Below are positions 18,175 to 25,516 of a DNA stretch of 64,000 nt, piece by piece (position 1 is the stretch's first letter; every line of letters starts with the position of its first letter). Source of the stretch: Gammaproteobacteria bacterium Ga0074134 (GTDB lineage: Bacteria; Pseudomonadota; Gammaproteobacteria; Ga0077554; Ga007554); contig LNEJ01000059.1 of NCBI GenBank assembly GCA_001464965.1, positions 5 through 64,004 of the forward strand. The letters run 5' to 3'. Under the pieces are notes generated by a model that saw only the letters and a program-made list of their open reading frames with translations, had not been told where the DNA came from and made no database searches. The position numbers were made by a program, and so were the translations under genes.

Positions 18175-18477
18175 TCACTCCAACCGTCCTGCCTCCAGCA
18201 CCGGCACCATCCAGTAGTGCAGGCCGCTACCGGCAAAGCCATGCTTAAGTCCTTCGATGACTTCTCGCGCCTCCTCCATGGGGAGGTGGCATCGGAACAT
18301 CAGCCTGCGGCTGTGGCCCGCCACCTGTTCGGCTATGCTGAGGGGTTGATGCCCAGTGCCGTGACCGTTGACCTCCAGGCTCGTGAAACCGCCCACACCC
18401 TCACAGGTAAGCAGCCAGTCCACCAGTGCGTCCTCGATGGCCGGGGTGGCGATAATCTCAAGCAGGCATTCATTCAT
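18175..18477 (-). CDS. DUF3240-like small protein downstream of the czcA-like gene
   Basis: Motifs LVDWLL, GFTS, SIAEQVAG and HYWMVPV; typical position after heavy-metal RND genes. Confidence 0.75.
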   Translation of the reverse strand: MNECLLEIIATPAIEDALVDWLLTCEGVGGFTSLEVNGHGTGHQPLSIAEQVAGHSRRLMFRCHLPMEEAREVIEGLKHGFAGSGLHYWMVPVLEAGRLE

Positions 18478-18501
18478 GTTGTTGTCCTCAATCAATCAGG
18501 T

Positions 18502-21500
18502 TCAGCGTGACTCTCCGAAACGGCGGTACAAGATCGGCAGCAGCACCAGCGTTAGCAGGGTGGATGTGATCAGCCCGCCAATCACTACAATCGCCAGCGG
18601 GCGCTGGATTTCCGAGCCGGGGCCGGTGGCGAATAGCAGCGGCGCGAGCCCGAAGGCGGTGGTCGAGGCGGTCATCATTACTGGCCGCAGGCGCCGCTTG
18701 GCGCCTTCCACCACCACCTGCGCGAGCGCCATGCCCCGGGCGCGCAACTGGTTGAAGTGGCTCACCAGCACCACGCCGTTGAGCACGGCGATGCCGAGCA
18801 GGGCGATAAAGCCCACCGAGGCGGGCACCGAGAGGTATTCGCCCGACAGCCACAGGGCGAACACGCCGCCGATCATGGCGAACGGGATGTTGGACAGCAC
18901 CAGTATCGACTGGCGCACCGAACCAAACGTGGAAAACAGCAGCAGGAAAATCAGGCCTATTGCAACCGGCACAACAATGGAAAGGCGCGCGGCGGCGCGT
19001 TGCTGATTTTCGAATTGACCGCCCCATTCCAGATGGTAACCGTTGGGCAATGGTACCCGTTGCGCGACCACGCGCCGCGCCTCCTCGACGAAACCTACCA
19101 GGTCACGACCCTGCACGTTGGCGATCACTACGACCATGCGTGCGGCGCGCTGGCGGTCCACCTTAACTGGCCCTTCCACGCGCGTGAGTTTTGCCACGCT
19201 GGCAAGTGGTACATTGTGGCCATCGGGCAGGGTGATGAGCAGGTTGGCGAACGTGGCGGGCGAACCCATGCCCGTGCGCAGAATCAGTGGGGTGCGGCGC
19301 ATACCTTCGTGGATAGTGCCTACCCGGTTGCCTTCAAGCTGGGCGCGCAAGGTGTTTTCCAGTTCATCAACGGAAAGGCCGAGGCGACCCGCCGCCAGAC
19401 GGTCTATGTCGATTTTGAGAAACTGCATGCCTGCATTGCGGGTAGTGTAGACATCCTGGCTGCCTTTGATGGAACGTACCGCAGTGGCGATTTCCTCGGC
19501 CTTTTTGTTGAGGGTATCGATGTCGGTGCCGAACAGCTTAATGGCCAGGTCGCCGCGCACGCCGATGATCATCTCCGAGACGCGCATCTCGATAGGCTGC
19601 GTGAAGTTGTAGACCAGGCCGGGAATGCCGTCCATCACTTTACGCAGCTCCTCGATCAGCGTCTCCTTGCTTTTCATGCGCCACTGCTCGCGCGGCTTGA
19701 GCACGAGAAAGGTATCCGTCTGATTGAGGCCCATCGGGTCGAGACCAATTTCATCTGAGCCTACCCGTGCGACGATGCTGGTCACCTCCGGCACACGCTT
19801 CATGATCTCCTGCTGGATCTTGAGATCGAGGGCCGCGGATTGCTCAAGCGTGATCGACGGCAGCTTTTCCACGCCAATGATGATGTCCCCTTCATCCATG
19901 GTGGGCATGAAGGTTTTGCCGATCTGCGTATAGGCCGCGGCCGTAAGTGCCAATGCGACAAGCGCTATGGCGACGACGGTGCGCGTATGCCTCAGCGACC
20001 AGTTGAGCAGCGGTGTGTACAGACGGGTGAGGATACGCACCAGCCAGGGGTCACCGTGCCCTGTAATCTTGAGCAGGAATGAGGCGATCACCGGGATCAC
20101 CGTCAAGGACAGCAGCAGCGAAGCGCTCAGGGCAAACACAATGGTGAGCGCCACCGGGCTGAACAGTTTGCCCTCCAGCCCTTGCAAGGTGAGCAACGGC
20201 AGAAACACGGTGATGATGATCAGGATGCCGGCGGTAACCGGCACCGCGACCTCGCGCACCGAGCGGTAGATCACGTGCAGGCGCGGCAGGCGCGCGGCCT
20301 GTTCGTGGGCAAGATGTGCGACGCTGTTTTCCACGACCACCACCGCGGCATCAACCAGCATGCCGATGGCAATCGCCAGACCGCCCAGGCTCATCAGGTT
20401 GGCGGACATGCCAAACAGGCTCATCAAAATAAACGTGACCAGCGCGGCCAGGGGCAGCACAAGCGCCACCGTCACGGCGGCGCGCAGGTTGCCGAGGAAC
20501 AGCACCAGCAGAACCAGCACCAGCGCGATGGCCTCAAGCAGCGCTTCCGCCACGGTAGTGACGGCGCGTTCCACCAGGTGGCCGCGATCATAAAAGACCT
20601 GGAGGCTGACGCCTGGCGGCAGGCTGGGCTTGATCTCGTCGAGCTTGGCACGCACACCTGCCACCACCTGCCGGGCGTTGGCGCCGCGCAGCCCCAGCAC
20701 CAGTCCCTGCACCGCCTCGCCCTGGCCGTTGCGCGTCACCGCGCCATAGCGCGTCAGCGCGCCGATGCGCACCTCGGCGATATCCGCAACGCGCACCGGC
20801 ACACCATGGTCGTTTTTGACCACGATGGCGCGCGCGTCGTCGAGGTTTCTGATGCGGCCCTCGGCACGCACCAGCAGCGCCTCCTCGCCATCATTCACGC
20901 GCCCCGCGCCGTCATTGCGGTTATTCATCTCCAGTGCCTGTTGCAGCATTTGCAGGGTGACGCCGCGCGCGGTCATGCGCACATTGTCCGGCGCCACCTC
21001 GAAGGCGCGCGCCAGCCCACCCAGCACGTTCACATCAGCCACGCCCGGCACGGTACGCAGCGCCGGACGTATCACCCAGTCGAGCAGGCTGCGCCGCTCC
21101 ATCAGTGTCAGGCCACCGCCCTCGATGGTGAACATGAACATTTCACCCAGCGGCGTGGTCAACGGCGCTATGCCGCCGCCGATACCGGGCGGCAGATCGC
21201 CACGCACGGCGTTGAGACGCTCGGTGACCTGCTGGCGCGCCCAATAAATGTCCGTGCCGTCAACGAAGTCCACGGTGACATCGGTGAGCGCGTATTTGGT
21301 CACCGAGCGCAGCATGGTCTGGTTGGGGATGCCCAGCATCTCCACCTCGATGGGCGCGGTGATACGCGCCTCCACTTCCTCGGGCGTCATGCCGGGGGCT
21401 TTGATGATAATCTTGACCTGAGTGGACGACACATCCGGGAAGGCGTCGATGGGCAGGTTTTTGAAGGCCAGCGTCCCGCCTCCCGCCAGTAGAGCGACCA

Positions 21501-21555
21501 CCAGCATCATCAGCAGACGCTGGGTGAGCGCGAATTGGATCAGGCGTGACAGCAT
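18502..21555 (-). CDS. czcA: CusA/CzcA-family heavy-metal RND permease
   Basis: Motifs LPIDAFPDVS, NLMSLGGLAIAIGMLVDAAVVVVEN and RLRPVMMTA. The metal specificity is unknown. Confidence 0.9.
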   Translation of the reverse strand: MLSRLIQFALTQRLLMMLVVALLAGGGTLAFKNLPIDAFPDVSSTQVKIIIKAPGMTPEEVEARITAPIEVEMLGIPNQTMLRSVTKYALTDVTVDFVDGTDIYWARQQVTERLNAVRGDLPPGIGGGIAPLTTPLGEMFMFTIEGGGLTLMERRSLLDWVIRPALRTVPGVADVNVLGGLARAFEVAPDNVRMTARGVTLQMLQQALEMNNRNDGAGRVNDGEEALLVRAEGRIRNLDDARAIVVKNDHGVPVRVADIAEVRIGALTRYGAVTRNGQGEAVQGLVLGLRGANARQVVAGVRAKLDEIKPSLPPGVSLQVFYDRGHLVERAVTTVAEALLEAIALVLVLLVLFLGNLRAAVTVALVLPLAALVTFILMSLFGMSANLMSLGGLAIAIGMLVDAAVVVVENSVAHLAHEQAARLPRLHVIYRSVREVAVPVTAGILIIITVFLPLLTLQGLEGKLFSPVALTIVFALSASLLLSLTVIPVIASFLLKITGHGDPWLVRILTRLYTPLLNWSLRHTRTVVAIALVALALTAAAYTQIGKTFMPTMDEGDIIIGVEKLPSITLEQSAALDLKIQQEIMKRVPEVTSIVARVGSDEIGLDPMGLNQTDTFLVLKPREQWRMKSKETLIEELRKVMDGIPGLVYNFTQPIEMRVSEMIIGVRGDLAIKLFGTDIDTLNKKAEEIATAVRSIKGSQDVYTTRNAGMQFLKIDIDRLAAGRLGLSVDELENTLRAQLEGNRVGTIHEGMRRTPLILRTGMGSPATFANLLITLPDGHNVPLASVAKLTRVEGPVKVDRQRAARMVVVIANVQGRDLVGFVEEARRVVAQRVPLPNGYHLEWGGQFENQQRAAARLSIVVPVAIGLIFLLLFSTFGSVRQSILVLSNIPFAMIGGVFALWLSGEYLSVPASVGFIALLGIAVLNGVVLVSHFNQLRARGMALAQVVVEGAKRRLRPVMMTASTTAFGLAPLLFATGPGSEIQRPLAIVVIGGLITSTLLTLVLLPILYRRFGESR

Positions 21556-22667
21556 CACTCGTGCCCTCCGCCGCCTAATCCCGTCCACGCGCCTTTCACC
21601 GCCGCCACGCCGCGCACCGCGACGCGCTCATCGCCACGCAGCTCGCCCGCAATCACGCTATGGCCATTCTGTTCGCTGACGATCTGTACGGGCTGGGCGC
21701 GGAAGCCCTGTGCGGTCTGCACGAAAATCACACTCTGCTTCGCGCCGCGCGCCACGGCTGCGACAGGCACACTATAACGCGGCCCAGCGGCGGGGGCTGA
21801 CAACTGCGCCTCGATGAACTGACCCGGCCGCAGTCTATCAGTGCCGCGCGTGATCTCGGCGCGCAGCAGCACGGTCTGGTTTTCGGGATCCACGTCACGC
21901 CCGATCATGATCAGGCGGCCCGATGCCGCTGCGGCGGGTACCTCTACCCTCTGTCCAACGTTCAGTCCGTTTACCCGCTCCTGCGGTACGCGCAGTTCCA
22001 GCCACAGCGCATCCAGCCGTGCCATGCGGTAGAGCGGTTCGAGGCGGTCTACACGCTGACCTGCTACCACTTTTTGCTCCAGCACGATCCCGGCGATGGG
22101 CGCTGTTATTGTGAGCGTACCGCTCAATGCGCGTGTCTGCTCCAGCCTGCGCAACGCGGCTTCATCCATCCCTGCCAGACGCAAGGTTTGACGATGCTCA
22201 TTGAGTGCCGACGCCAATTCCTCGTGGCGGCTCCTGGTGGTCAGATAGCGGCGCTCGGCGATGATGCCGTCCTTGAACAACTGCTCGTCGCGCGCCAGCT
22301 CGGATTGCGCCAGCCGCACTTGGGTCAGCGCCTGGAGATAGCTGCCTTGTTCAGTGACAAGCTCCGTGCTGCGGAGGGTGGCAAGCGCTTGCCCCTTGCT
22401 TACCTTGTCACCCACAGCGGCCAGCAGCGCCTCCACCAGTCCGCTTTGGGAAGCGCTGACCACGCGCTCCTGTGCTGGCGGAATCACCACACGCGCCGGG
22501 AAACGGCTGCTCAACACCATCGGTGCCGGTTCCATCTGCGCAACCACGATGCCCAGCGTCTTGAGTTGGACGGGCGTGAAACGGATGTCGTCAGCGGCTC
22601 GCGCCGCAGGAAAGACCACGGTAATGGCGAGCAGGCAGGCCAGATGACGGGCAGTTATTTTTCTCAT
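21555..22667 (-). CDS. czcB: RND periplasmic adaptor (CzcB-like membrane fusion protein)
   Basis: Signal peptide, ITAPIAG and LRPGQF; TGATG coupling to czcA. Confidence 0.87.
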   Translation of the reverse strand: MRKITARHLACLLAITVVFPAARAADDIRFTPVQLKTLGIVVAQMEPAPMVLSSRFPARVVIPPAQERVVSASQSGLVEALLAAVGDKVSKGQALATLRSTELVTEQGSYLQALTQVRLAQSELARDEQLFKDGIIAERRYLTTRSRHEELASALNEHRQTLRLAGMDEAALRRLEQTRALSGTLTITAPIAGIVLEQKVVAGQRVDRLEPLYRMARLDALWLELRVPQERVNGLNVGQRVEVPAAAASGRLIMIGRDVDPENQTVLLRAEITRGTDRLRPGQFIEAQLSAPAAGPRYSVPVAAVARGAKQSVIFVQTAQGFRAQPVQIVSEQNGHSVIAGELRGDERVAVRGVAAVKGAWTGLGGGGHE

Positions 22668-23935
22668 GGTATTTCTCCAGCGGCTTGGTTATAGCGCGCG
22701 ATATTTCTTTGTAATTGCAGTCCAAGCTGCTGTTCGGCGCGTTCTGCGGCAAACGCCAGGGTCTGTACACGCAGCAGGGTCACCAGATCAATCTCTCCGA
22801 TGGCGAAGGCCTTTTTCATCAGGCGCAGGTTTTCCTGCGCTAGGCGATTTTGCTCAACGGCCAGATCAAACTCGGCGCGCGCCAGCGCCAGTCTGTGCTC
22901 CGCTTCATCCAAAGCCAGATCCAGTTCGCGTTTGAGCGCATCGCGCGTACTCTGCGCCTCGGCCTGGGCCACCACCGACGCGGCCAGCCGGGGACCAGCA
23001 TGTGCCGTGCTGTGCAGGGGCAGGGTCAGGGCGATGCCGACGCTATCGTTAATCTCGCTGCGGCGCGTTGACTTCTCATGGCGGGCACCCAGAGTAAGCA
23101 CGGGATTGCCGCGCCGCTCCTGCCTGGCCAGTTGAGTCTCGGCGGCGGCCTGCGCCACGCGGCTTTGACCGTCGGCAAGCAGGGGGTGATCGTCAGTGAC
23201 GGCGATTTGCGTTGACGGGGCCTCGTTACGCACCGCCGGCAGTGCTTCAATGCCTGTCAACATTTCATAACGGTGCAGTGCGTGCTTGAGTTCGGTATGG
23301 GCACGCAGGTATTGCGCCTGGCGGCGCAGTGTTTCGTCCTGCGCCAGCAGCAGATCGACCCTGGCCAGTTCGCCTGCCGTCATGCGCTTGCGCACATCCT
23401 GCTCCAGGGCCTGTGCAGCACGCCATTGCTGCTCCGCCAGCACCAGATCGTTTTCCATCAGGGCCACATCCCACAGACGCTCGCGTACCTGCCCGGCCAC
23501 CTCCAGCCGCAGGGCGTGCTCCAATGCCTTCAGCCCCATACCCGCTTGATCGGCGGCCGCTCTTCTCGCCTGTTTCTGTCCGAGCAGCCACAGCGGCATC
23601 TGAACGCCGCCCTCCCATTCGGTCAGCCCATCACGGCTGCCGATCTGATCGCTCTGGTGGCGCAGCACCAGCGCCGTGGGACCTGCCAGCGGGTTGCCCG
23701 CCTGGCGGCGCAGTGCATCCACCTGCTCCCCACGCGGCGCGATTACCTGCTGGCGCGGATAACGCTCAAAGGCTTGCAGAGTCACGTCATGCAATGTCAG
23801 GCTCGGGTCTACCGGCACACGGATGGCATCTTCGGCAGGAGGCGCCGCCAGGGCATGGCCCGTCAGGCAGATCCAAAGCGCCATACCCCAGATATGGAAA
23901 GACGGCGCCGCACCCCGCAAGGGCATCAGTCGCAT
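22664..23935 (-). CDS. czcC: TolC-family outer membrane efflux protein (CzcC-like)
   Basis: Signal peptide, helical repeats GELARVDLL and GEIDLVTLL; operon position. Confidence 0.85.
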   Translation of the reverse strand: MRLMPLRGAAPSFHIWGMALWICLTGHALAAPPAEDAIRVPVDPSLTLHDVTLQAFERYPRQQVIAPRGEQVDALRRQAGNPLAGPTALVLRHQSDQIGSRDGLTEWEGGVQMPLWLLGQKQARRAAADQAGMGLKALEHALRLEVAGQVRERLWDVALMENDLVLAEQQWRAAQALEQDVRKRMTAGELARVDLLLAQDETLRRQAQYLRAHTELKHALHRYEMLTGIEALPAVRNEAPSTQIAVTDDHPLLADGQSRVAQAAAETQLARQERRGNPVLTLGARHEKSTRRSEINDSVGIALTLPLHSTAHAGPRLAASVVAQAEAQSTRDALKRELDLALDEAEHRLALARAEFDLAVEQNRLAQENLRLMKKAFAIGEIDLVTLLRVQTLAFAAERAEQQLGLQLQRNIARYNQAAGEIP

Positions 23936-24026
23936 AAAATCTCCGCATTAATGAAATGAATTACCGCCACCGTAAGGAACGGCAGCACACCATCAGCAGG
24001 ATATCCTGCCAGAGGTTAAAGCAGGC

Positions 24027-24058
24027 TTAAACCTAAAAACCGAAGTTTTTAGGTTTAA
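24027..24058 (-). promoter_or_regulatory. Perfect 14-bp stem with C(UUCG)G tetraloop overlapping the leader ORF stop; candidate attenuator
   Basis: Minus strand TTAAACCTAAAAAC-TTCG-GTTTTTAGGTTTAA. Confidence 0.7.
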
Positions 24059-24488
24059 TGAACGGGGGAGCGCGCGGCGCGCAAGGGGAGGTGTGAGGGC
24101 AGGGCTGGCATGACGGGACACTATTCAGCGCAAGGTGTTGCAACACCATCGGGGCCGGAAACACCGGGATGGAGGGAGGGGCACCCGCGGGCGGGCTCTT
24201 CTTGGCCTTGAAAGGCGGAACCTCAGCCAGACCGCCTTCGATGCCGATGGGCATTCCAACGGCGGCAGGCACTGTGTCAATGGCTGAGGCATCATCCGCG
24301 CCGGCGCTGGCGCCATAATCAACGCCACCCTTTTTCAGATGGACAGGCAGCACATGGATATGCACCCCCATCACGGCGGCCGGACCAGCGCCGTCATCAC
24401 CGCCCACATGCGCATGGACCAACGGGGCCATCACCTGGAGTACCACGATCCAAAAAATCAGAAACAAATCGCTACAGCGTTTCAACAT
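24033..24488 (-). CDS. DUF2946/CzcI-like leader protein with His motifs, CxxC and a near-C-terminal RAPP
   Basis: Hydrophobic N-terminus ending APLVHAH, GVHIH, a Pro-rich linker, CQPC, then PRAPP. Co-oriented and about 100 bp upstream of czcC. Confidence 0.75.
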   Translation of the reverse strand: MLKRCSDLFLIFWIVVLQVMAPLVHAHVGGDDGAGPAAVMGVHIHVLPVHLKKGGVDYGASAGADDASAIDTVPAAVGMPIGIEGGLAEVPPFKAKKSPPAGAPPSIPVFPAPMVLQHLALNSVPSCQPCPHTSPCAPRAPPFIKPKNFGF

Positions 24489-24913
24489 TGAATGCCTATC
24501 GCCTGGATGCCTCGGAACACAACGGATGCTTCATACTGTAACATAGCCGCCGGATTTCAACCCAAATAATCCATTAGCCGAATTGGGTCATTCTGTGTAG
24601 GATGGTCAACCGCGATTCCTAAATAGTTTCTACGCCACGGAAGCGGCGCTGGGCTTTGCCATGCTGGCCCACAACCATTTCGACAGGCCGCGATGCGCGC
24701 CAAGATTCAACCGGCGCTGGAAACATTATACCAACAGGTGTTAGCGACCGGTGCATTCTGGCATCGTAACCCGAAACAGAGCCAATTGTTGCTCGCCGTC
24801 TCGCGACGACGAAGGGCGTGGTTCGACGGGTTATGGGCAAACGCCGGTTATCCCCATTGAGACGAAAATCGGCTAATGGATTATTTGGGTTAAATATAAC
24901 GGTCGGGAGTAAT

Positions 24914-25516
24914 ATGAATAAAAATAAAATCATTTCATCTATCACGTTGTTGGCGGCCGGAGTGCTGGGCGTAACCGGGTCTGAAGCGAAGGAGTATCGT
25001 TGTAATCTGGTGAGTGGCAGTGTGATTTTGGTGCCTGATGCCGGGTGTGATATCAAAAAAGCTTACCCAGGTTTTGCCTACGTTGGGTTGCCGGGCACCT
25101 GTTTCTCAGCGAGTATGACGATGGGGAAACAGAAGTTTTCCGGTGTTGCGGGGTTGACAACTGAGGCGGTGACTCATCCCTTGGAAGGTTCGCAATCGCA
25201 GCGTGGCACTCCGGCAATGCTGAAGGAGGAGAGCCTTCCTGCGGTTACGAATGAGTTTGGTTTTGTTGAGTCGCGGCGGCTTTTTACTGGAAGAACTGCG
25301 TTATCCCTTGCTGGCGGGAAAGTCTATACGGCTGATGCCGGTGTTGCTGCAGGGGCTTCTTCCACTGAGCAAATGTTGATCACAGGTGGTAGTGGTGTCT
25401 ATGAGGGTGCAACGGGCACTATCTATGCGAGCGGTGATCTTGTTGGGAAAGGAGGCGAGTATTTTGGTAAAATCTGTACGCCTGTTTCGCCATCAGCCCG
25501 AAGGGGCGATGGTTGA
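24914..25516 (+). CDS. Secreted hypothetical protein, possible allene-oxide-cyclase/dirigent-like barrel
   Basis: Signal peptide MNKNK...SEA; four Cys; C-terminal LITGGSGVYEGATGTI; T-rich codon use. Confidence 0.65.
   Translation: MNKNKIISSITLLAAGVLGVTGSEAKEYRCNLVSGSVILVPDAGCDIKKAYPGFAYVGLPGTCFSASMTMGKQKFSGVAGLTTEAVTHPLEGSQSQRGTPAMLKEESLPAVTNEFGFVESRRLFTGRTALSLAGGKVYTADAGVAAGASSTEQMLITGGSGVYEGATGTIYASGDLVGKGGEYFGKICTPVSPSARRGDG

Follow-up and report, generated by a model that had tools for sequence, protein, structure and literature searches.

We analysed a window of 64,000 nucleotides (nt) from Gammaproteobacteria bacterium Ga0074134 (contig LNEJ01000059.1), in which a small open reading frame (ORF) precedes an operon for a heavy-metal efflux (HME) pump of the resistance-nodulation-division (RND) class. 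The ORF, called here the leader, occupies positions 24033-24488 of the minus strand and encodes 151 amino acids (aa). Four genes in the same orientation follow it: those for an outer-membrane factor similar to CzcC and CusC (the outer-membrane efflux protein, OEP; 22664-23935, PF02321), a periplasmic adaptor similar to CzcB and CusB (the membrane fusion protein, MFP; 21555-22667, PF16576), an RND permease of the CusA/CzcA family (18502-21588, PF00873) and, as the last gene of the operon, a P-II-like protein with a Pfam match to DUF3240 (18175-18495). The leader and the pump genes are separated by 97 nt, within which the Shine-Dalgarno (SD) sequence GGAG (23941-23944) stands before the ATG of the OEP gene (23933-23935), the two together occupying 23933-23944.

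A preliminary description of this stretch, made from its letters, had proposed a metal-sensing attenuator in which ribosomes stall at an RAPP motif of the leader and an adjacent hairpin switches the pump genes. The sequence features that it listed (HAH, HIH, CQPC, RAPP followed by nine codons, a hairpin with a UUCG loop and a palindrome) are all present on the minus strand as described. The two features that make the locus look special, the CxxC motif and the UUCG hairpin, are private to the lineage of the window.

The leader family and its genomic context

In single-sequence searches the leader family looked tiny (five clusters in one search, three representatives among 1.84 billion in another). 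This was due to limited sensitivity, as became clear with a profile of 10 sequences, which collected 58 proteins at E≤1, 40 of them at E≤1e-3. None of the 58 has a Pfam domain on record, a protein atlas search returned unnamed clusters only, and a scan of metagenome contigs gave 30 pattern matches, none of which was confirmed. The leader is carried by 7 of the 12 genomes of the window's own taxonomic family. An even class-wide sample of 400 genomes contained it in nine, five of which are among the 396 genomes outside that taxonomic family, and a pattern scan added two further loci from Methylophilus.

Between genera and orders, where identity is 25-40%, the frame, its length, its start region and its end motif all persist. 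Conservation is confined to both ends of the protein, the middle 90 residues being free in sequence as well as in length. Residues P22, H25, A26, H27, P141 and P142 are invariant in an alignment of 50 sequences, and Q18, V24, V28, G29, H43, R139 and A140 are nearly so (R139 is invariant in the 10-sequence alignment). Among congeners, conservation at codon positions 1 and 2 (0.885 and 0.896) exceeds that at position 3 (0.798). Judged by these comparisons, the leader ORF is a genuine, conserved member of an unnamed family, which we designate by its two end motifs as APLVHAHVGG...RAPP. Many spurious frames with RAPP-like strings do occur in these loci, as would be expected if the leader were a chance open frame in G+C-rich DNA; this explanation has practically no probability left, being already refuted by the conservation across genera and orders and by the excess at the first two codon positions.

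The N terminus of the leader reads Lys-Arg followed by a hydrophobic stretch of 17 residues, with VHA before a possible cleavage site, and is a candidate signal peptide. AlphaFold2, run with the 50-sequence alignment, predicts a single helix at residues 2-23 (24420-24485; pLDDT 82-91) and disorder in the remainder of the chain (mean pLDDT 62, pTM 0.24). The helix is probably a signal peptide or an N-in anchor. A lone helix followed by disorder would fit an export signal or membrane anchor and a sensor peptide rather than a folded protein. The N-terminal hydrophobic helix is shared by the family.

Next to the helix lies the HAH motif (H25, A26, H27; 24408-24416), inside the APLVHAHVGG block. 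The corresponding pattern H[AG]H is found in 58 of 58 family proteins, and 6-25 residues after it comes a second His motif, HxH in 41 and HxP in 14 of them. In the window protein the second motif is HIH (H43, H45; 24354-24362). The other conserved end is the presumed arrest site, RAPP (residues 139-142, codons CGC GCT CCC CCG, 24063-24074), whose conservation in homologues the preliminary description had made decisive for its proposal. The motif is RAPP in 49 of the 58 proteins, QAPP in six, RPPP in one and RSPP in one; one more protein has RSPP far from its end. The conservation of R139, P141 and P142 argues that RAPP is no chance match. HAH and the C-terminal motif are 92-120 residues apart in the 58 proteins, and in the window leader the His motifs lie ∼95-115 residues ahead of RAPP. 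Between Pro-Pro and the stop codon there are 1-6 residues in 55 of the 58 proteins, nine in the window protein and 11 in one other. In the latter (P0008) the lengthened tail after RAPP ends in two cysteines, so that the window is not the sole lineage with an altered distance to the stop.

The cysteines fared differently. The CQPC of the window leader (residues 127-130, 24099-24110) stands eight residues before RAPP, and its congeners have FQPC, FRPC or FQPS at this position. A CxxC is present in one of the 58 proteins, which is the window protein itself, and 11 of the 58 have no Cys at all. We therefore gave up the CxxC as the sensor motif, a role in which the preliminary description had cast it.

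We examined the context of the leader at 23 loci from methanotrophs, methylotrophs and related metagenome-assembled genomes (MAGs). At 17 of these loci homologues of all three pump genes (OEP, MFP and RND permease) lie directly downstream on the same strand; these 17 are from Methylomonas, Methylobacter, other Methylococcaceae, Methylotenera, Methylophilus and MAGs of the window's taxonomic family. At three Nitrotoga loci, all with the QAPP variant, adaptor and permease are present, and an outer-membrane factor was not detected with the query used. One locus has the outer-membrane factor up to the contig end, with a leader not matched by the search pattern, and in two the contig stops at or right after the leader. 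In 11 of the 23 loci the gene after the permease is one for DUF3240. The leader and the pump genes are 52-200 nt apart in the 21 loci measured, the distance being longer in Nitrotoga.

A position before HME-RND operons would also suit a mature periplasmic accessory of the pump, either a metal chaperone or a regulator similar to CzcI of Cupriavidus metallidurans, with RAPP playing no role in translation. Small exported proteins such as CzcI are encoded directly before czcCBA-type operons and are thought to act in metal sensing, and the His motifs of the leader could bind metal in a mature protein. CzcI lacks a C-terminal Pro motif (PMC9973294) and differs in this from the window leader, in a comparison made by description and not by sequence. 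Against a mature accessory stand the 90 variable residues, predicted to be disordered, between the two conserved ends, the fact that the invariant motif is a known ribosome-arresting one, with 1-6 residues between it and the stop in 55 of the family's 58 members, and the counter-selection of RAPP in ordinary proteins (PMC12992588). We regard this explanation as rather unlikely.

As to the pump itself, the permease scores 1062.8 bits against TIGR00914 (curated cut-off 701.45), and the label 'czcCBA-like' of the preliminary description is a fair one that leaves the substrate open. Among solved structures ZneA comes closest (684.8 bits), ahead of CusA (618.6 bits); transmembrane helix 4 of the permease reads as in CusA, unlike ZneA. 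At the positions that we take to be those of the methionine triad of CusA the permease has G, Q and E (hand count on the 3k07 alignment, of moderate reliability), and with the same moderate reliability it appears to lack the triad of E. coli CusA-type Cu(I)/Ag(I) pumps. The P-II-like match of the last gene (18175-18495) is weak, and some Methylomonas loci have a second, more distant DUF3240 copy further along.

The operon is flanked by rpoH, an ORF of 232 aa, glmU and glmS; no dedicated metal regulator adjoins it, as the preliminary description had noted. The 232-aa ORF (24818-25516), which lies upstream of the leader and is divergent from it, has no Pfam or NCBIfam match. A scan of the minus strand over 23500-25000 found no sigma-70-like promoter.

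The UUCG hairpin as an insertion

Nine codons separate RAPP from the stop codon of the window leader, TAG (24033-24035), which is buried in the 3′ arm of a perfect 14-bp hairpin (24027-24058, minus strand). Counted from the last Pro codon, the stem begins with the fifth base. A 24-nt core of the hairpin had no match in 100 shuffles of the window; it occurs once in its own genome, and a search of genome_contigs gave no exact match.

In an alignment with four congeners the hairpin corresponds to a 27-nt insertion present in the window only. The genera G006 and G007 do not have it either, and it is also absent from the other family loci for which leader 3′ ends and intergenic stretches were displayed. 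The congener ORFs stop two codons after RAPP (RAPPFI, RAPPLI or RAPPSI). The insertion took the place of the original stop codon, and the tail behind RAPP grew from two residues to nine, which is why the window leader has 151 aa; four of the six congener sequences (P0002, P0003, P0005 and the G003 ORF counted from Met) have 143-147 aa, and P0004 is listed at 158 aa, with an upstream start.

The arms of the hairpin have many relatives in the same genome. With up to one mismatch allowed, the 14-nt arm is found 27 times and a reversed control twice, and the arm sites form both ends of a non-coding element of 220-251 bp, of which we inspected three full copies (C16:20053-20300, C48:58729-58979 and C79:19743-19962, or L055, L058 and L061), each with the arm at both ends. 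The terminal inverted repeats of the element begin TT(A/T)AACCTAAAAACGGCAGTTG, and 13 places in the 2.9-Mb genome match at least 140 nt of it at 79-100% identity. The element has the features of a miniature inverted-repeat transposable element (MITE), short, non-coding and present in ∼13 copies. Compared with a full copy the window locus is without the ∼200-bp interior, either lost or never present, and what remains is two 14-nt terminal inverted repeats joined by TTCG. On this evidence the hairpin is what remains, or a miniature, of a mobile element that inserted at the former stop codon of the leader in the window lineage, and it is very probably a remnant of this MITE. A structure that is lineage-private and MITE-derived cannot be the conserved switch.

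The insertion allele is identical in contigs of four runs from three studies dated 2015-2024; the assembly itself may derive from some of them, though run X9 is not marked as a source. Coverage without differences in the four runs indicates that the allele is real. Run X6 also contains a second strain variant in a 343-nt contig, which covers the start of the OEP gene and part of the intergenic region (23684-24015) with 34 differences and 11 gap letters; it ends at 24015, just short of the insertion site.

Could the hairpin be a working attenuator in this lineage all the same, with a ribosome stalled at RAPP covering its 5′ arm and thereby switching the operon? The geometry would allow it, since ∼5 nt of the 5′ arm would lie under a ribosome whose P site holds Pro141, and the allele is evidently tolerated, given its uniformity across runs and studies. 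These points have to be set against the absence of the hairpin from the four congeners, G006, G007 and the other displayed loci, and against its composition from the inverted repeat ends of an element with ∼13 genome copies. In addition, no U run follows the hairpin and a terminator scan did not flag it; the ribosome-binding site (RBS) of the OEP gene lies ∼85 nt beyond it, and predicted folds contain no pairing between the two. We consider an attenuator of this kind unlikely. As an intrinsic terminator the hairpin was rejected: only 3 of its 14 pairs are G-C, and it is followed by AGCCUGCUUUAACC. The insertion may have changed or weakened the proposed switch.

The intergenic RNA

The region between leader and pump is itself conserved in the genus. 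Mean pairwise identity among five congeners is 0.837, versus 0.625 in upstream non-coding DNA and 0.80-0.82 at third codon positions, which points to some constraint. It contains the palindrome GCAGGATATCCTGC (23996-24009, minus strand), which as a putative RNA hairpin reads GGCAGGATATCCTGC (23996-24010); in the form of the 16-bp palindrome GGCAGGATATCCTGCC it is perfect or near-perfect in all five congeners. One other genus has it with G-U pairs. The substitutions that occur keep the RNA pairing: there is a G-U pair in G001, and G007 (L037) retains six pairs, two of them G-U. Such pair-keeping changes favour an RNA hairpin over a DNA operator.

The same palindrome could be the operator of a transcriptional regulator encoded elsewhere, the leader being incidental. 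Its conservation in all five congeners is compatible with this, as is the outcome of the RNA accessibility and duplex tests given below, which yielded no structure-based switch. The pattern of change is less so: in G007, where the six pairs persist, only five of eight half-site positions match as DNA. The palindrome was not seen in other lineages that keep the leader-pump arrangement, and the scan mentioned above found no sigma-70-like promoter on this strand between 23500 and 25000. An operator seems to us improbable.

Closer to the pump the terminator scan listed a G+C-rich hairpin followed by an A/T-rich stretch, a terminator-like arrangement (23962-23987, minus strand). The window version of this hairpin lacks 7 nt relative to all four congeners, a second private change at this locus. 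A Methylotenera MAG (L048:7349-7412) has a 60-nt spacer between leader and pump with a G+C-rich hairpin followed by six U, which resembles an intrinsic terminator and hence attenuation; different lineages may thus use different couplings.

The last 120 nt of the leader have 28-48% C and 13-24% G in 21 of 21 loci, while the intergenic region itself is not C-rich. Such a C-rich 3′ end would suit Rho loading, by analogy with CruR.

For the RNA of the intergenic region and the leader end, RNAalifold proposed a closing helix between the RAPP codons and the SD and AUG of the OEP gene. Complementarity between the RAPP footprint and the RBS ranked first at a single locus, that of a Methylophilus (L032, rank 1 of 113). 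A three-way pairing among the segment after the stop, the halves of the palindrome and the SD was considered and dropped, the SD partner not being kept in G002 and G003 (inspected by eye). The first paired base lies close after the stop in most loci. Minimum-energy folds of short random RNAs tend to pair their own ends, and we give this feature no weight.

A probable exported, His-based arrest sensor

The preliminary description placed the leader near the DUF2946 proteins CruR and CutF. Kinship with DUF2946 was not detected. The window leader has no Pfam match at E≤0.1 and no NCBIfam match, and PF11162 (DUF2946) matches one of 50 family members, at E=0.67. An hhalign comparison of the family with seven local DUF2946-like proteins gave a probability of 1.15%, the DUF2946 side being a shallow alignment. 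The family has neither a conserved CXXC nor the 45-residue spacing from CXXC to RAPP (residues 90-93 of the window leader, the place expected for CXXC, read VPPF). By these results and those with PF11162 and hhalign, the leader is not detectably a DUF2946 member. Going by these comparisons, its likeness to CruR and CutF is one of design, descent not being demonstrable.

The genome does contain a candidate for that family elsewhere. A search of the whole genome with PF11162 picks a gene on contig 52 (C52:5568-5759; L014:1402-1707) and not the window leader. Its match is borderline, 23.4 bits versus a cut-off of 23.7. This second leader has a CxxC, exactly 45 residues, RAPP and five more residues, and its conservation extends to congeners and sister genera. 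No Pfam match was obtained for the gene downstream of it.

The known systems are described as follows. CruR is a DUF2946 protein with CXXC and RAPP, ∼45 residues apart in its family, which controls a TonB-dependent transporter by Rho-dependent termination; RND pumps are not named among CruR partners in the portion of the article at hand (Roy et al. 2022, PMC9426467). In vitro arrest of CruR occurs when the P site holds the third RAPP codon and the A site the fourth (Fujiwara et al. 2025, PMC12992588). The same work reports RAPP as arresting ribosomes in CruR, ApdA and ApdP and as depleted from proteomes, and finds small ORFs with RAPP or RGPP before genes for TonB receptors, YcnI, PCu(A)C, PepSY and DsbA/thioredoxin-type proteins; the term 'RND' does not occur in its main text, and a term count gave zero for 'efflux'. 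Stalling of CutF in the ribosomal tunnel opens a stem-loop that covers the cutO RBS (Ozturk et al. 2025, bioRxiv 10.1101/2025.02.05.636593). A survey of 5,334 CutF-like proteins in 29 clusters names the OEP of RND systems as the commonest neighbour downstream, followed by other pump parts, and includes two His-only clusters (14 and 17) that precede HupE/UreJ genes (Ozturk et al. 2023, PMC9973294). The association of such leaders with RND operons is therefore already in print as bioinformatics (PMC9973294). The preliminary description was not aware of a demonstration for an RND efflux operon, and our literature searches for an experiment on a leader of this kind ahead of an RND pump gave none.

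The leader shares with CutF of the Rhodobacter capsulatus cutFOG operon its small size, a (candidate) N-terminal export signal, an exported metal-ligand motif, a Pro-Pro near the C terminus (within 15 residues in CutF) and the first place in a metal-detoxification operon, with an expected logic in which metal turns the operon on. By its length of 151 aa, its Pro-Pro nine residues from the end and its intergenic region of 97 nt it conforms to the rules for CutF-like proteins on these points, its signal peptide being a candidate one. It differs in that the ligands of its family are His only (HAH, HxH), with no conserved Cys, and in that a stem-loop hiding the RBS was not seen in the accessibility and duplex tests of 21 family loci. 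The His-only clusters 14 and 17 of CutF-like proteins precede HupE/UreJ genes, whereas the window family precedes RND pumps. With CruR (Bp2923 of Bordetella pertussis, PF11162) it has in common a RAPP placed shortly ahead of the stop codon, an N terminus of the export type, the first place in a metal operon, a long intergenic region and a C-rich stretch that could serve Rho. Apart from the differences given above (no PF11162 match, conserved CXXC or 45-residue spacing), CruR precedes a TonB-dependent importer and the window family precedes exporters, so that a metal response of opposite sign is to be expected. ApdA and ApdP have the identical core motif near the C terminus and an N-terminal localisation signal; those peptides, in contrast, monitor Sec and YidC.

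The only conserved parts of the leader, an export-type helix with His motifs and a C-terminal RAPP, make up the anatomy of arrest sensors of the CutF/CruR type. We think it probable, with respect to the class of mechanism, that the leader is a cis-acting, exported, His-based arrest sensor for the OEP-MFP-RND-DUF3240 operon. In such a mechanism the N-terminal helix would bring the nascent chain to the Sec translocon. A ribosome reaching RAPP would pause there, presumably while the P site holds Pro141 and the A site Pro142, an assignment made by analogy with the toeprinting of CruR (PMC12992588). At that moment HAH (residues 25-27) and HIH (43-45) would already be periplasmic, since they lie ∼95-115 residues ahead. 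A metal ion bound to the His motifs would alter the pulling force on the chain and hence the length of the pause. Pause length would in turn set the expression of the pump, via either the conserved structured intergenic RNA or the access of Rho to the C-rich 3′ part of the leader.

Several points weigh against this proposal. RAPP alone is not sufficient for arrest, the preceding residues being of importance as well (PMC12992588). The substrate metal is not fixed by a permease that is nearest to ZneA, then to CusA, and has G/Q/E by hand count at the triad. Tests of the coupling to the pump gave no consistent switch in the RNA: the unpaired probability of the RBS is ∼0.2-0.7 in free RNA, with a ribosome at RAPP and with a ribosome at the stop, with no consistent direction across 21 loci; footprint-RBS complementarity ranks first in one of 21 loci and mid-field in most; the RNAalifold model, built on five close relatives and thus shallow, has one compensatory pair among 41; and z-scores of intergenic folding are ≤−1.7 in only 10 of 21 loci, which are not independent. 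The C-rich 3′ end may merely mirror a Pro/Ala-rich peptide. In the window itself 27 nt have come between RAPP and the conserved intergenic elements, and its switch may be altered or dead.

A more specific version of the sensor hypothesis is offered tentatively, and we consider it more doubtful than the general mechanism. It would see the family as an exported arrest-peptide sensor that arose independently, by convergence, and shows no homology to DUF2946 that could be detected. In this sensor a His site, possibly an N-terminal His freed by cleavage after VHA, would signal a periplasmic cation, not Cu(I), to a pump similar to ZneA in oxidisers of methane, methanol and nitrogen. As part of the same version the window would be a natural experiment, in which the remnant of a mobile element sits precisely at the junction of the arrest site and the conserved RNA of the intergenic region.

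The usual description of heavy-metal RND pumps places them under the control of two-component systems or sigma/anti-sigma pairs. The operon of the window has no adjacent regulator and begins instead with a conserved leader of the stalling type. The insertion allele and the uninterrupted alleles of congeners offer a ready comparison that could tell whether it is the arrest site or the stop codon whose distance to the intergenic RNA matters, and cultured carriers, such as Methylomonas, bring the family within reach of the bench. If the proposed mechanism is true, a His-based member would join the CutF/CruR class, and the class would extend from copper oxidases and importers to tripartite exporters.

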